A stretch of 64,000 nucleotides of DNA from the NCBI GenBank assembly GCA_001771585.1, contig MEUE01000001.1:191789-255788 (forward strand). Direction: 5' to 3'. The notes under the pieces were generated by a model that saw only the letters and a list, made by a program, of their open reading frames with translations, ran no database searches and had not been told where the DNA came from. The first letter of the stretch is position 1, and every line of letters begins with the position of its first letter. This document shows, one piece after another, positions 1,934 through 13,252 of this stretch. Position numbers and translations under genes: made by a program. This DNA comes from a candidate division WOR-1 bacterium RIFOXYB2_FULL_46_45. GTDB lineage: Bacteria > Margulisbacteria > WOR-1 > XYC2-FULL-46-14.

Positions 1934-1962
1934 GTACGGACAGATCATTGATCTGTCCCTAC
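1934..1962. repeat. REP-like palindrome (GTAC/GTAG-flanked, 10-bp stem)
   Basis: GTAC-GGACAGATCA-T-TGATCTGTCC-CTAC: perfect 10-bp stem, 1-nt loop, 5 bp beyond the purF stop. Confidence 0.75.
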
Positions 1963-8322: not shown

Positions 8323-8336
8323 TTATAATTTATATG

Positions 8337-8361
8337 TACGGGCGGGTTTCAAACCCGCCCC
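8337..8361. repeat. REP-like palindrome (GTAC + 10-bp stem)
   Basis: GTAC-GGGCGGGTTT-C-AAACCCGCCC; same architecture as 1934-1962; 14 bp beyond the SLH gene stop. Confidence 0.75.
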
Positions 8362-8375
8362 TTTAATTTAAATTA

Positions 8376-9983
8376 CTACTTCTTAACAGCTACCGCTGTT
8401 TTTTGTCCTTTTAATATTCCCTTTGCCAGCACATCCTGGACCGTCTGAGTGCGGTAGAGAATCTCAACCGCCTCCGCGCGCGTGATCCAGCTGTTCGGCG
8501 ATAATTTGTCCGAAGTTACGTATTGGAGCATTCCGGCCGTTTTCGCTCCGGCAACATAGCCCGCCGCCCAGTGGCTCGGCTTAATATCTTTGTATTCTTT
8601 GTTGTACTTCACCGGCACGACGTTCGCGAACTTGGAGACGGTCGTCACCGCCTCGGCGCGGGTAATCCCCTTTTGAGGTTTGAACCTCGCGTCGGGATAA
8701 CCGTTCACATAGCCGACACTCGCCGCCGTAAAGATCTGGTCATAGGCCCAGCTCTTGGGAGAGACATCCGAAAAAAGATGCTTCCCTTTCTGGACTTTGA
8801 CATCCGCGGTGCGAACCAAAACCGTCGCGATCTCCGAACGGTTGATCTTCCCTTCCGGCCTGAAATTGCCGTCCGGGTACCCTTTGATGATCCCCTGAGT
8901 CGCCAGGAGCGAGATCTGGTTATAGGCCCAGTGATTTTCGGGAACGTCCTTAAATCTGATTAATTCCAACGGCTTGGCCGGTTCAACCAACTCTTTCCTG
9001 GCCTCCGCAACCGGCAGTCCATATGAAATCGAGAAATAGTTGTTGCTCATCCCCGGAGCCGCTTCGAATTGATGATAGGCATAGTCGAATCTAAATCCCT
9101 TCACATTTAAACCGATACCGCCGGTCAGGTTGTTTTGGTCCAAACCGACTCTAAGCGCGATTAACGGGATCGGAGAGTATTCAATACCAAGATGTAAAGT
9201 TGACGGATTTTTTTGTGAAACACTCGAGTTGATATCACAGGCGACAATCAGCTCCTGCCCCTTAAATTCGCGCAGGCCGCGATCCCCCAGCACTTTGAAC
9301 GAAGCACCGTAAACGAGGCTGGCAGGAAAACTCTCGTCGTGTCCGCCGGGATAAGCAAGCTTTCCCCCCAAAGAGGCGGGGAGTATATTGCGGCCAACGA
9401 TACCTAATTTTAAGAAATCTCTCGGCCGGGCTTGTACGCCAAGGTCAAGATCCATACCGGACCCGTTGCCGTCGCTGATTCCGCCTCCGATCAGGTTGGT
9501 TGAGAATAATTTTAAATTCGCTCCGACCGAAACATCGCTGCGGTTAAGGTCCGAACCATAGGATAAAAGAAGGACATTGTTGGTATTCCCCATTGTCCCG
9601 GCCGCGCTATCAACTTCATAAACCGGGTCGCTTTCGGTTCCGGGCTTAATCCTGGTCACCGGAGCCCCTTCGATGCCCGAACCGGCATAACCCAAACCAA
9701 ACACGCCGTACTTGGTCGGATAAACGCCGTTAATAGATGTATATGAATAATCTTCCATAAAACGGCCGAACATAGATGATACTTGGAGCTTTTCAATATT
9801 GGCTATTCCGGCCGGGTTCGAATAGGCCGCGGCGGCATCGTCCCCAAGGCCGACATAGGCCTTACCGAGCGCTATTACGCGGGCGTTTTGGATTTGAGAG
9901 GTTGGATCGTTGGCAATAAAAGCGGAAACGCTTGAAACAAGAATTAGAACCATCAGTCCGGTTATTAATATAACTCTTTTCAT
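8376..9983 (-). CDS. Outer-membrane PorV/FadL-like beta-barrel fused to three C-terminal SLH domains
   Basis: Signal peptide after AGGAGG SD; ARVIALGKAYVGLGDDAAAAYSNPAGIA (PorV/FadL-type start); alternating beta-strands ending FRFDYAY...FSISYG; SLH motifs FKDVPENHWAY...GIIKGYPDGNFRPEGKINRSE, FSDVSPKSWA...GYPDARFKP..ITRAE, YKDIKPSHWA...ITRAE. Confidence 0.85.
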   Translation of the reverse strand: MKRVILITGLMVLILVSSVSAFIANDPTSQIQNARVIALGKAYVGLGDDAAAAYSNPAGIANIEKLQVSSMFGRFMEDYSYTSINGVYPTKYGVFGLGYAGSGIEGAPVTRIKPGTESDPVYEVDSAAGTMGNTNNVLLLSYGSDLNRSDVSVGANLKLFSTNLIGGGISDGNGSGMDLDLGVQARPRDFLKLGIVGRNILPASLGGKLAYPGGHDESFPASLVYGASFKVLGDRGLREFKGQELIVACDINSSVSQKNPSTLHLGIEYSPIPLIALRVGLDQNNLTGGIGLNVKGFRFDYAYHQFEAAPGMSNNYFSISYGLPVAEARKELVEPAKPLELIRFKDVPENHWAYNQISLLATQGIIKGYPDGNFRPEGKINRSEIATVLVRTADVKVQKGKHLFSDVSPKSWAYDQIFTAASVGYVNGYPDARFKPQKGITRAEAVTTVSKFANVVPVKYNKEYKDIKPSHWAAGYVAGAKTAGMLQYVTSDKLSPNSWITRAEAVEILYRTQTVQDVLAKGILKGQKTAVAVKK

Positions 9984-10066
9984 CGGGTTTTTCCTCCTGT
10001 CCCGTCTAGCGGGATCACCTTTCATATGTCTATCGGAGGAAGCCCTAGAAAACTTGCATGAAACTA

Positions 10067-10159
10067 ACTCACCCTAAATCCCTCTCTTTTCAAGAGAGGG
10101 ACTTTCCCCTTTGCTACTTTTCCCCCTCTCTAGAATAGAGAGGGGGTTAGGGGGTGAGT
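10067..10159. repeat. Nested CCCTCTC/GAGAGGG palindromic element overlapping the glyS 3' end
   Basis: Outer arms ACTCACCCT...GGGGTGAGT; inner hairpins TCCCTCTCTT-TTC-AAGAGAGGGA (10079-10101) and CCCCCTCTCTA-GAA-TAGAGAGGGGG (10122-10146); the glyS stop codon lies within it. Confidence 0.8.
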
Positions 10160-12054
10160 CTCCCAAAATCAGCAATTCTTAGATATAAACTCGAGATTGA
10201 TTTCAGCAAAGCCAGGCGATTCACCTTGAGGCGCTCGTCCTTATGCATCACCAGGACCTTGTCGAAAAAGAGTGTAACCGGCTCGGTTAAATCGGCCAGT
10301 TTTTTTATCGCGTCAATATAACGGTTGTTGTTGATTGCCTCTTCAACTTCCCAGTTAATTTTCATATACGCTTCGTAGAGGGCTTTTTCCTCGACATCGG
10401 TAAGATCGTGTTCCTTAACCTGTTCCCGTGAGGCCTCTTTGCTGATCCGCTTGACCCGGTCTCCCGACATCCGCACCCCCTCAAACCAGGAAGCATTCCT
10501 GGTTTTCTGAAGCGCTTCCGCGCGGAGTGAAGCATCCAGTATATCGTTGAAGCCGGACAAGGCGGCATCGACTATGTCGTGTTTGTATCCCTTCTCCAAA
10601 AGTAGATTCTTTAGCCGCACCGCGATAAAATTGAGTACCGCCGCCGGGGCGATCTCTTCAAGTCCTAATGGAATCTTATGGTCTAAAATCGTGGAAATGA
10701 CCCCCTGTGCCGCCCGCCGCAAGCCGTACGGATCGGTTGAACCGGACGGCTCGTAGCCGATTGAAAAACAGCCGACCAAAGTATCAAGCTTGTCTGCCAG
10801 GCCGACCACCGCACCTTCAATTGATTTCGGGTGGACGGAATAATGCTCCAGGATTCCTTCCGCAACGACCGGCGATTCACCGCCTAAAAGAGCGTATTCG
10901 CGCCCCATCACTCCCTGCAGTTCGGGAAATTCAAAGACCATCTTGGTCGTTAAATCGGCCTTGCAAAGGGCGGCGATCCGATTAATCGCGGGGATTTTCC
11001 CATGATCTATTTTTGTTGATTTTACGATAAATTCGGCAAGTTTTTTAATCCTTTCGGTCTTCTCTTCCATGTTCCCCAGTTTTTCAAAAAAAGAGATCTT
11101 TTTCAGGTCGGCAATCCGGTCTTTTAACGGTATCTTGAGATCTTCCTCAAAAAAGAAACGGGCATCTTCCAGGCGTGCCGAGAGGACTTTTTCATTCCCC
11201 GCCCGGATATTCTTGTGATATTTTTTAGCGGCCCCGTCGGTTACAACGACAAAGCGCGGTTCCAACGACAGGTCGCGACCTATCGTTACCGGAAAGTACC
11301 TTTGGTTTTTTTTCATTGAAGTGATCAGCACTTCACGGGGCAATTTGAGATATTCCGCCTTAAACTTTCCGACCAGAACCGAAGGATACTCAACCAGGTA
11401 ATTTACTTCATTTAAAAGTTCTTCGTCTATTAAGACGTGCTTTTCGGCTTTTTGTATTAATTTTCTAATCAATTCTTTTCGATTGTTTTGATCTACAATT
11501 ATTTTTGCACTTTGCACTTTACGCTTTGCGCTCTCCGATTTGACCCCTGCCAGCTCAAACCTAACCGCCTTTTTTCCATAAAAAGCCGTAATCCGGTGGA
11601 TCGGACGGATGAAACGGAAATCCAAATCCCCCCAGCGCATTGAGATCGGAAGATAAAGGGAAGAGATGATATGAGGGAGAAGCTGCTTTAAAACCCCCTC
11701 CGTTGCCTCCCCCTTCCTGCTGATCTTTGCGACCAGATATTTTTTGCCGTTAAAATCTTTGGTGACCAGCTTGTTTACATCAACCCCGGCCGATCTGGCA
11801 AAACCGGCCGCCGCGCGCTCGGCAAGCTCAAAGGGAGGACCTTTCATTTCGGAGACCAGATCTTCCTGTTTTGGGGCTAAAGCCTCAACGGATAAGACCA
11901 GCCGGCGGCAGGTGCCGAAAGTTTCTATTTTGGAATACGCTATCCGCGCGGCTGAAAGCTCCTGCGCGCTTTTATTCTTCAAATCCTCAATCAACGCCGG
12001 CATAAACCTGGCCGGAATTTCTTCACATACTATTTCGAGAAGTAGGTTGTTCAT
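10147..12054 (-). CDS. glyS: Glycine--tRNA ligase beta subunit
   Basis: LLLEIVCEEIPARF, MRWG...FIRPIH, EVNYLVEYP, GNEKVLSARLEDARFFF, CKADLTTKMVFEFPELQGVMG, DPYGLRRAA, FFDKVLVM...NRLALL; start at MNNLL (12054). Confidence 0.96.
   Translation of the reverse strand: MNNLLLEIVCEEIPARFMPALIEDLKNKSAQELSAARIAYSKIETFGTCRRLVLSVEALAPKQEDLVSEMKGPPFELAERAAAGFARSAGVDVNKLVTKDFNGKKYLVAKISRKGEATEGVLKQLLPHIISSLYLPISMRWGDLDFRFIRPIHRITAFYGKKAVRFELAGVKSESAKRKVQSAKIIVDQNNRKELIRKLIQKAEKHVLIDEELLNEVNYLVEYPSVLVGKFKAEYLKLPREVLITSMKKNQRYFPVTIGRDLSLEPRFVVVTDGAAKKYHKNIRAGNEKVLSARLEDARFFFEEDLKIPLKDRIADLKKISFFEKLGNMEEKTERIKKLAEFIVKSTKIDHGKIPAINRIAALCKADLTTKMVFEFPELQGVMGREYALLGGESPVVAEGILEHYSVHPKSIEGAVVGLADKLDTLVGCFSIGYEPSGSTDPYGLRRAAQGVISTILDHKIPLGLEEIAPAAVLNFIAVRLKNLLLEKGYKHDIVDAALSGFNDILDASLRAEALQKTRNASWFEGVRMSGDRVKRISKEASREQVKEHDLTDVEEKALYEAYMKINWEVEEAINNNRYIDAIKKLADLTEPVTLFFDKVLVMHKDERLKVNRLALLKSISSLYLRIADFGRLTP
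11264..11289. repeat. REP-like palindrome embedded in frame in glyS
   Basis: Minus strand GT-AACGATAGGTCGCGACCTGTCGTT; 11 of 12 positions complementary plus one G-T pair; encodes TIGRDLSL. Confidence 0.65.
11505..11532. repeat. Four 7-nt tandem units inside glyS
   Basis: TTGCACT TTGCACT TTACGCT TTGCGCT; encodes SAKRKVQSAK. The same AGTGCAA unit recurs at about 14405-14425 on the opposite strand. Confidence 0.75.
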
Positions 12055-12065
12055 TTTTTTGTTGC

Positions 12066-12345
12066 GAACCTGCGAATAAATTCGCGGTTCCATTAACGGG
12101 CTCCCGCCCCGATTGAAATCGGGGCACCCTGGGAATACCTTTTGTCTTCTCCTTCCCTATTTGACGGATACTCCTGAAAAAAGCGCCTCGCGGATATCCC
12201 CTTAATGAATTTCTTCATTTCACCATCCAGTGAGTTTTTTCTTTTATACGTATTAAAAACATAATGATATAACATATTTACCTCGGGTGCGAAAATTTAT
12301 TTTCGCGGGCCCCCGACAGGAACCGAGACTTCAGTCTCAGGTTCC
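12066..12345 (-). mobile_element. Degenerate IS200/IS605-type or REP-associated Y1 transposase element with terminal hairpins
   Basis: Four hairpins (12066-12090, 12106-12125, 12289-12306, 12319-12345) bracket a tnpA fragment between glyQ and glyS. Confidence 0.7.
12093..12275 (-). pseudogene. tnpA: Internally deleted Y1 (HUH) transposase remnant
   Basis: N-terminal YHYVFNTYKRK joined directly to KFIKGISARRFFQEYP; both resemble IS200 TnpA motifs, but the HUH motif and the C-terminal catalytic Tyr region are absent. Confidence 0.72.
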
Positions 12346-12364: not shown

Positions 12365-13252
12365 CTATGCCTTACCTGTGCCTATGCCTGCGCCTACGCC
12401 TTGGATCCCCTCTCCCAAGTAAACTTTGGCGGCCCATTTGGCCATCTTCCTAATCTTCAAAAGATGCTGCATCCGCTCCGCCACCGAAAGAGCCCCGCGA
12501 GCATCCAGGATGTTAAAATAGTGGGAGCATTTTAGAATATAATCATAGGCGGGAAGAACCAGATTCTTCTTCAAAAGCCGAATCGCCTCCGTTTCAAAAA
12601 TAGCAAACAGATTCTGCAAAGCGGCGATATCCGCCTCTTCAAAATTATATTTCGAATGTTCCTGCTCCTGCCGCAAATAAATATCGCCGTATTTGACCCC
12701 CTTCGTCCACTCAATATCATAAACCGAATTGACCTTTTGGATAAACATCGCCAGCCGCTCCAGCCCGTAGGTCAATTCGACGGAAACCGGCTTGCAGGGG
12801 AAGCCGCCGCACTCCTGAAAATAGGTAAACTGGGTAACTTCCATCCCCTCCGCCCAGACCTCCCATCCGGTCCCCCATGCTCCCAAGGCGGGCGATTCCC
12901 AGTTATCTTCGACAAAACGGACATCGTGATGGGAGGGCTCAATCCCAATCGCGCGAAGTGAATTCAAATATAACTCCTGAACATTAAGCGGCGACGGTTT
13001 TAGAAGGACCTGGTACTGAAAATAATGGAAGAGGCGGTTCGGATTCTCTCCATATCTCCCGTCGGTCGGCCGGCGGACCGGGTCGATATAGGCAACCTTG
13101 GTCGGCTTGGGACCGAGCGCCCCGAAAAAAGTGGCGGGAGACATCGTCGCCGCCCCTTTTTCCACATCGTACGGCTGGCGGATGACACAACCCTCGCCGG
13201 ACCAATAGCGATTTAAGGTTGCTATAATATCCTGAAAAGATATCTTTTTCAT
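12365..13252 (-). CDS. glyQ: Glycine--tRNA ligase alpha subunit
   Basis: [75 protein letters not shown]. Confidence 0.98.

Follow-up and report, generated by a model that had tools for sequence, protein, structure and literature searches.

A translated GTAG-type REP hairpin in glyS of a candidate division WOR-1 bacterium

Translated palindromes in described systems and in glyS

Repetitive extragenic palindromes (REPs) that carry a GTAG tag have been reported inside open reading frames (ORFs) for known proteins in several species, including uvrA, truB and tRNA synthetase genes, and their termini can supply stop codons (Di Nocera, De Gregorio and Rocco 2013, BMC Genomics 14:522; PMC3733652). 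Most GTAG REPs in that survey were extragenic, with intragenic copies a minority, and more than half of the inserts were dimers encoding 20-30 amino acids; RPE-4 and RPE-6, two Rickettsia palindromic elements (RPEs), are described as short, with a CGTC tag and no associated transposase (PMC3733652). A further precedent is the "double-foot" REPs of subclass 2.4, which lie in frame within the tnpA_REP gene itself; this subclass is marked by the motifs NH[IFV]H, WQ and YIxNNP and by REPs with 5' GT[AG]G and 3' C[TC]AC (Quentin, Siguier, Chandler and Fichant 2018, BMC Genomics 19:475; PMC6006769). Here we consider a palindrome translated within glyS, the gene for the beta subunit of glycine--tRNA ligase, in 64,000 nucleotides (the window; C1:191789-255788) of the genome of candidate division WOR-1 bacterium RIFOXYB2_FULL_46_45 (G000 below; 1.70 Mb, 4 contigs, 46% G+C, 99.5% complete). 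By the names of its GlyS homologues, the genome falls among Candidatus Margulisiibacteriota/Saganbacteria. The palindrome is confirmed as a genuine copy, slightly decayed, of a short mobile hairpin of the GTAG REP type. We read it, with a probability of about 0.72, as an old and partly decayed 28-29-nt double-foot GTAG REP, of the kind associated with the HUH nucleases known as TnpA_REP or REP-associated tyrosine transposases (RAYTs), subclass 2.4.

A preliminary description of this DNA had placed a translated palindrome at 11264-11289, in the loop after the residues QRYFPV, and its sequence, strand and peptide were all verified. The plus strand there reads AACGACAGGTCGCGACCTATCGTTAC, with GTAACGATAGGTCGCGACCTGTCGTT as its reverse complement, and the peptide context in GlyS is QRYFP-VTIGRDLS-LEPRF. 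The 24-nt palindrome, AACGAYAGGTCGCGACCTRTCGTT, forms 11 of 12 pairs, the single mismatch being a G-T in the DNA stem and a G-U wobble on the mRNA strand, and the sense RNA hairpin has a folding energy of -15.6 kcal/mol (z = -2.8). The copy has kept its 5' foot, GTAA, and has lost its 3' foot, with TTGG instead of nTAC.

Membership of a family is shown by the 18-nt core, which is one base off GACAGGTCGCGACCTGTC, a sequence present exactly at four other sites in G000; we estimate the chance of such a core match in 1.7 Mb at ~0.003. The preliminary description had made its reading depend on there being other genomic copies, and these exist. It had also counted 9 matches in 13 positions between the glyS palindrome and the minus strand of an intergenic copy at 1934-1962 (GTAGGGACAGATC), a count that direct comparison reproduces, and a single covariance model recovers both as members of one REP-like family. 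The model was built from an alignment of 35 hairpin copies and gives the glyS copy 27.8 bits (E = 3.7e-4 genome-wide), a value that is somewhat flattered because this copy was among the 35 seeds; the 18-mer match is evidence independent of that score. A chance origin of the palindrome, in a loop that is variable and with no relation to the intergenic hairpins, is hardly believable. Simple counting leads us to expect ~0.14 24-nt palindromes with one mismatch per 64 kb, and the missing 3' foot would suit an accident, but against this stand the core match to a sequence found exactly four times (the reversed control pattern of the core has 0 matches in the genome), the 5' GTA foot shared at the right distance, a reading frame identical to that of eight other copies with a CGCG-type loop, and the absence of the family hairpin from glyS in 19 aligned relatives, of which one, G028, carries an unrelated hairpin. 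The genome-wide pattern search with its reversed control and the common frame led us to reject a chance palindrome.

How does this locus compare with the described systems? The family resembles the surveyed GTAG REPs in its short stem-loops, its GTAG or degenerate foot, its subfamilies with complementary stems, its kinds of host gene and the stop codon it supplies at gltX (PMC3733652). It differs in that most copies lie in ORFs, including all nine of the CGCG-loop subfamily, in that each is a single unit of 28-29 nt with a net effect of ~0 to +5 residues, and in its host, a Margulisiibacteriota/Saganbacteria-like phylum outside that survey. In-frame GTAG REPs are thus already known, and no new class of system is opened here; the present case goes somewhat beyond the published ones in that in-gene copies dominate, loop codons are replaced nearly isometrically, and variants persist and switch at orthologous codons. 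The hosts of such elements now include a candidate phylum that is related to Cyanobacteria (Margulisiibacteriota/Saganbacteria-like), and the case is an unusually clear one of a REP family whose copies are mostly translated in housekeeping genes, four aminoacyl-tRNA synthetases among them. The preliminary description took the phenomenon to be known from few lineages; it is less rare, given the intragenic GTAG REPs of PMC3733652 and the in-frame tnpA_REP REPs of PMC6006769.

The parallel with Rickettsia that it drew holds in part. As with RPEs, palindromic repeats stand in frame in functional, often essential genes, are tolerated at the protein surface and are maintained at the DNA level. The glyS element, however, is 28 nt long with a GTA foot and a net gain of two residues over the sister genera G002 and G003, and does not qualify as an RPE. 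RPE-1 is much longer and adds tens of residues. Nor is the glyS element a simple in-frame insertion in the manner of RPE-1.

The hairpin family and its host genes

The family consensus is GTA[G/C/A]GG-[A/G]CAG-NNN-loop-NNN-CTG[T/C]-CC[N]TAC, with flanks common to all copies, and the unit is 28-29 nt long, with 13 stem pairs that include a 7-8-bp variable stem around a 3-4-nt loop. The covariance model finds 41 distinct loci in the genome at E < 0.005, three of them within the window. Compensatory stem variants occur elsewhere in the genome (GACAAGTCGCGACTTGTC, GACAGATCGCGATCTGTC and GGCAGGTCGTGACCTGCC), and in the 35-copy alignment 88% of cells are paired, while shuffles reach 74% and slid controls 32-40%. 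Nine of the 13 stem pairs vary on both sides, with a covariation score of 0.456 (0.169 in shuffles, <=0.109 in slid controls). GTA is invariant at alignment columns 1-3 and is followed by G, C or A; all of the copies inside RAYT genes have GTAG. The consensus is double-footed, as in GTAGGGACAGGTCGCGACCTGTCCCTAC, while the glyS copy retains the 5' foot alone. Among the 40 relatives surveyed for the family and for RAYTs, 29 have no copies, and the core is found exactly ten times in G002 vs four times in G000.

Predominantly extragenic location, a trait of GTAG-type REPs, does not hold for this family. Some 25-26 of the 41 loci (~61%) lie inside long ORFs and are read in frame; random windows do so in 82% of cases by the same test (an ORF of >=150 codons, with the copy >=15 codons after the first start and >=12 codons before the stop). 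Hosts that score above NCBIfam cut-offs are TruB, IspD, TsaC, CysS, LarC, MetG, QueA, LpxB and RsmE; UvrA (PDB) and GlyS (Pfam, PDB) are likewise confirmed, and GltB, GltD, MutS, a HemW-like radical SAM enzyme, an FAD oxidoreductase and others were named by eye from their translations. The nine copies with a CGCG-type loop all lie in genes and share one frame, x-[TA]-x-R-D-L-[SP], mostly T-G-R-D-L-S, which has a chance of ~1.5e-4 if frames are equally likely; copies with odd loops use all three frames. The element can also end a protein. The last ten residues of GltX (LGAGFKPART) and the TAG stop are REP-encoded, as is the C-terminal tail of RecA, ERAEQGSART. For annotation, peptides of the forms x-T-G-R-D-L-S-x, VRAEQCSART and YGQxxxLP are REP-derived loop segments and not protein motifs.

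Several genes hold or adjoin more than one copy. The recA gene is bracketed by the family, with one copy just upstream of the start, the one that encodes the tail, and one just downstream; three copies lie within the HemW-like radical SAM gene and two within the FAD oxidoreductase gene. The clusters within these last two genes suggest local hopping or especially tolerant proteins. In gltD, the rare stem variant GACAGATCGCGATCTGTC is found in both G000 and G003 at different positions in the gene, and truB copies also differ in position between these two genomes.

Replaced codons, empty sites and turnover

The codons of the three genera show what the glyS copy displaced. Where G002 has ACT TTA TCA GAT GGA AAG / CTC GAA TCT AAG and G003 has ACT GTC TCA AGG GGA AAA / CTT GAA TCA AAG, G000 has GTA ACG ATA GGT CGC GAC CTG TCG / TTG GAA CCG CGC, so that 18 ancestral bases (TLSDGK in G002) have given way to 24 of the element (VTIGRDLS); the L-E-x-[KR]-F that comes next is homologous. 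The copy is not a simple in-frame insertion, since bases of the element have taken the place of ancestral loop codons. The alignment finds neither peptide nor hairpin in glyS of G002 and G003, in keeping with the view of the preliminary description that the peptide comes with the element, and by the same sequences the copy postdates the split from these sister genera. In the protein alignment of G000 with 19 relatives, the loop after FP is 1-2 residues longer than usual (two longer than in G002 and G003, one longer than in PDB 7LU4). In a confident AlphaFold2 model (mean predicted local distance difference test score, pLDDT, 87), the site, for which the preliminary description expected a surface loop, is a beta-hairpin tip: the first strand spans 267-271, GRDL at 272-275 makes the turn and the second strand spans 276-286, at pLDDT ~85. 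In this model the element forms the predicted tip and adds one residue to each strand.

The host is presumably essential, since no alpha2-type glycyl-tRNA synthetase (GlyRS) scores above cut-off in the genome, and glyQS is the only GlyRS type found there; that glyS might be dispensable through a second, alpha2-type enzyme was ruled out on the same grounds. The nearest relative of this GlyS in 5.8 billion proteins is 55% identical, and the 90% cluster to which it belongs contains this organism's protein alone. GlyS of G000 also lacks three segments of its relatives, near residues ~185-195, 418 and 485. The first, which all five relatives aligned at this place have, is ~24 residues long and contains the conserved G-H-R stretch that follows ELAG; the second is the nearly invariant LPRFxxD after EHY, and the third, which follows LEEI, is ~20 residues long. 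Confidence in the AlphaFold2 model is low at 149-162 and 181-200.

Small net changes are the rule in the other hosts as well. Concatenated windows of 18 host genes were searched against ten relatives, and in none of them was there a clean insertion of +9 to +10 residues. The net change is +2 residues in uvrA against eight of the ten relatives, mostly +1 to +2 (0 to +3) in both lpxB and the radical SAM gene, 0 in metG against five of nine relatives (range -23 to +7), and 0 or +1 in gltB and rsmE against the closest relatives, with a wider spread elsewhere. Plain insertion of 9-10 codons was thus ruled out, as the net changes centre on 0 to +2 residues where flanks are well conserved and ancestral codons are replaced.

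Empty and filled alleles can be set side by side for glyS, uvrA and lpxB. In uvrA, G001 and G003 are empty (QI-LKHKEGTRL-QIL), and the loop of PDB UvrA is likewise two residues shorter than that of G000; the filled alleles are QI-MMVRTGRDLSV-QIL in G000 and QI-VRTGRDLSQQKI-QIL in G002, where the element is displaced by two codons. In lpxB, G000 (GACAAGTC...GACTTGTC) and G002 (GACAGGTC...GACCTGTC) are filled at the same codon and are one compensatory pair apart, while G003 and four order-level relatives are empty and have the ancestral K-K-x-x-P-D-x-x-F loop. In tsaC, G002 has a full element and four more residues than G001, and G000 has the same left junction with five codons lost to its right, which indicates that codons beside the element were trimmed at or after insertion. 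We take such trimming, together with selection on loop length, to be the simplest route to near-isometric replacement.

The same small length changes (in uvrA, lpxB, the radical SAM gene and metG) could mean that no transposition is involved and that the hairpins form, or are renewed, at their sites, by gene conversion or template switching from other copies onto proto-sites that resemble the element beforehand, or by a molecular drive like that of DNA uptake sequences. Ancestral-type loops do bear a partial likeness to the element: lpxB of G003 has GTA CGA TCG GAC GTT TCA vs GTA AGG ACA GGT CGC GAC CTG TCC in the filled gene, uvrA of G003 has GGA ACA AGG CTG vs CGG ACA GGT CGC GAC CTG, and glyS has G-K-L vs G-R-D-L; moreover, the REP variant at the one rsmE site differs between genomes. 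We nevertheless consider renewal in place quite unlikely. These likenesses are short and could be chance, and the gain of four residues with the element in tsaC of G002, with a five-codon loss beside it in G000, fits insertion followed by trimming. DNA uptake sequences (USS/DUS), for their part, number hundreds to thousands, with an invariant core and no covariation, whereas this family has just 41 loci, no invariant core and variable stems that covary by compensatory change.

What persists at these sites is the nucleic-acid hairpin and not the encoded peptide, which drifts, and some loops have been struck repeatedly. At one position in rsmE, G000 has GTAGGGACAGGTCGCGACCTGTCCCTAC (VGTGRDLSL) and G002 and G003 have GTAGAGACATGCCATGGCATGTCTCTAC (VETCHGMSL), with four compensatory pair differences, and G001 has a third, imperfect hairpin. 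In glyS of G028, an unrelated hairpin, GAACCGCGAAGTTCATTCGCGGGTTC, encodes EPRSSFAGSN at the same beta-hairpin tip; hairpins of this type are also seen in rsmE of G001.

Persistence of orthologous hairpins while the peptide changes, as in rsmE and, by a single compensatory pair, in lpxB, is also what would be expected if the in-gene hairpins were functional elements under host selection, be they DNA hairpins to which a host factor binds or RNA stem-loops that govern translation pausing or the decay of mRNA, with the glyS copy as one such site and not selfish DNA. The sole mismatch in glyS, a G-U on the sense strand, would agree with an RNA role, but the wobble in gltB is on the antisense strand and leaves no consistent sense-strand signal; with one case for and one against, the argument for sense-strand RNA selection was dropped. 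A host function is unlikely on wider grounds too. Most relatives (29 of 40) lack copies altogether, the orthologous sites of G001 and G003 are empty in normal genes, the host genes are functionally unrelated, the 3' foot of the glyS copy is lost, and site by site the variant follows the hairpin within a RAYT gene, which points to a mobile system rather than to the host gene.

RAYT genes and the origin of the copies

The genome has two Y1 (PF01797) genes, of which one encodes an IS200-like TnpA and the other a RAYT-like protein. The latter matches NF047646 (REP-associated tyrosine transposase) at E 1.3e-14, and its gene contains an in-frame GTAG...CTAC hairpin, GTAGAAACGCCCCGTCGGGGCGTTTCTAC (VVETPRRGVST), just after the HUH motif. 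Hairpins at this place, in frame and between the HUH and Tyr motifs, were found in RAYT genes of G000, G002 (C10 and C23), G003, G021 and G040. The hairpin within the RAYT-like gene of G000 has a GAAACGCCCC stem and is single-copy in the genome; that of the RAYT of G021, a class-level relative as is G028, is nearly identical to it in spite of the distance.

The resemblance to subclass 2.4 (PMC6006769) lies in the motifs NHLH, WQ and YIVNNP, in the foot sequences and in the in-frame REP between the enzyme's HUH and Tyr motifs. The differences are that the RAYT-like gene of G000 is without flanking REPs, that its internal hairpin is single-copy and that the dispersed family matches instead a RAYT hairpin of another genus, G002. 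Canonical REP/REPIN-RAYT systems (E. coli TnpA_REP/YafM and Pseudomonas REPINs) share GTAG-footed hairpins, one or few RAYT genes per genome, mostly vertical inheritance, patchiness and co-variation of hairpin and enzyme, but theirs are extragenic, often in REPIN/BIME pairs, in hundreds of copies and with a flanking RAYT gene.

For the glyS copy as an old REP of the subclass 2.4 kind, the course of events would be as follows. A RAYT acting on single-stranded DNA hairpins would have spread the element, and the survivors in essential genes would be those events that kept the frame and approximate loop length, with neighbouring codons trimmed at or after insertion. The encoded peptide would have no role in GlyRS and be tolerated since the hairpin gains just one residue per strand. 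The family is probably no longer mobile in G000, while a RAYT with the exact family 28-mer is present in G002. Since the sole RAYT-like gene of G000 has a different, single-copy hairpin, we infer that G000 has probably lost the enzyme for its main family, which would make the copies relics; in line with this, the glyS copy is decayed and exact copies are more numerous in G002, and the patchy distribution of the family among the 40 relatives is as expected of a REP/RAYT system.

Several observations weigh against this account. A unit of 28-29 nt is not a multiple of three, yet the products are in frame, with net changes of 0 to +5 residues. The copies at orthologous sites in uvrA, lpxB, tsaC and rsmE are perfect hairpins across genera at 70-80% protein identity, which is not obviously expected of a purely neutral relic. 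In G000, family copies flank neither Y1 gene, so that no REPtron layout is seen, and the resident RAYT-like protein falls under the NCBIfam cut-off (54 vs 80 bits). Two relatives, G017 and G038, have 10-16 strand-hits and no RAYT match, and eleven RAYT-positive relatives have few or no model hits; over the 40 relatives, the association between RAYT presence and hairpin count is weak (odds ratio ~6, by our count), in part because only a portion of the hairpin diversity falls within reach of the model.

A further idea, which we regard as possible but doubtful, is that loops of housekeeping genes serve as reusable docking sites, at which REPs of different RAYT lineages swap in frame at near-constant length. 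It is suggested by rsmE, which holds a hairpin of the RAYT-C10 type in G000 and of the RAYT-C23 type in G002 and G003, and by the unrelated hairpins that occupy the same glyS loop in G000 and G028. Besides the tip of the glyS beta-hairpin, candidate sites are the loop that precedes GPEGG in rsmE, the one that follows QIVDQI in uvrA and the RAYT loop after the HUH motif. If this were true, cassette exchange mediated by RAYTs would regularly renew peptides within essential proteins, both in Saganbacteria and in other uncultured lineages. The positions of the features discussed are summarised in Table 1.

Table 1. Positions of the features discussed. Unprefixed positions are those of the window; features belong to G000 unless another genome is named.
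Feature	Position	Strand	Details
In-frame REP copy in glyS	11262-11289	minus	GTAACGATAGGTCGCGACCTGTCGTTGG; encodes V-T-I-G-R-D-L-S and the first bases of L-E
glyS, glycine--tRNA ligase beta subunit, host gene	10147-12093	minus	648 aa; PF02092, PF05746; GlyS-named homologues; PDB 7LU4, 8IE2, 7YSE
glyQ, alpha subunit gene, adjoins glyS	12365-13252		
Intergenic family copy, both feet	1934-1962		GTACGGACAGATCATTGATCTGTCCCTAC; between two minus-strand genes; 44.5 bits, E 4.8e-9; -17.3 kcal/mol, z -5.8
Intergenic family copy	8336-8364		GTACGGGCGGGTTTCAAACCCGCCCCTTT; 12 nt downstream of the stop of minus-strand ORF 8376-10025; 31.6 bits
Double-footed family copy	C3:476796		GTAGGGACAGGTCGCGACCTGTCCCTAC
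REP-encoded end of gltX	C1:962241-962269		
Copies bracketing recA	C1:934413-935532		
Copies in HemW-like radical SAM gene	C4:49646, C4:49751, C4:50091		
Copies in FAD oxidoreductase gene	C1:290771, C1:290936		
Copy in gltD	C3:264268		GACAGATCGCGATCTGTC
RAYT-like gene	C3:101418-101972 (L037 1438-1995)	minus	185 aa; NHLH, WQ, YIVNNP motifs
IS200-like TnpA gene	L036 1477-1995	minus	
RAYT-C10 internal hairpin, G002			GTAGGGACAGGTCGCGACCTGTCCCTAC; identical to the rsmE copy of G000; G000 family GACAGGTC...GACCTGTC form, GTAG/CTAC feet
RAYT-C23 (G002) and G003 RAYT internal hairpin			GTAGAGCCATGCCATGGCATGGCTCTAC; close to the rsmE copy of G002/G003
RAYT internal hairpin, G021			GTAGAGACGCCCCGCCGGGGCGTCTCTAC
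RAYT internal hairpin, G040			GTAGGGGCGGGTTTnAAACCCGCCCCTAC
Unrelated hairpin in glyS, G028	L011 1750-1790		GAACCGCGAAGTTCATTCGCGGGTTC
Hairpin just past 3' end of IS200-like tnpA	C1:696596-696627		GAAATACCCCACA...TGTGGGGTATTTC

The last hairpin in Table 1 is a perfect one of 13 bp and is unrelated to the REP family; it is probably the subterminal hairpin of the IS200-like element.

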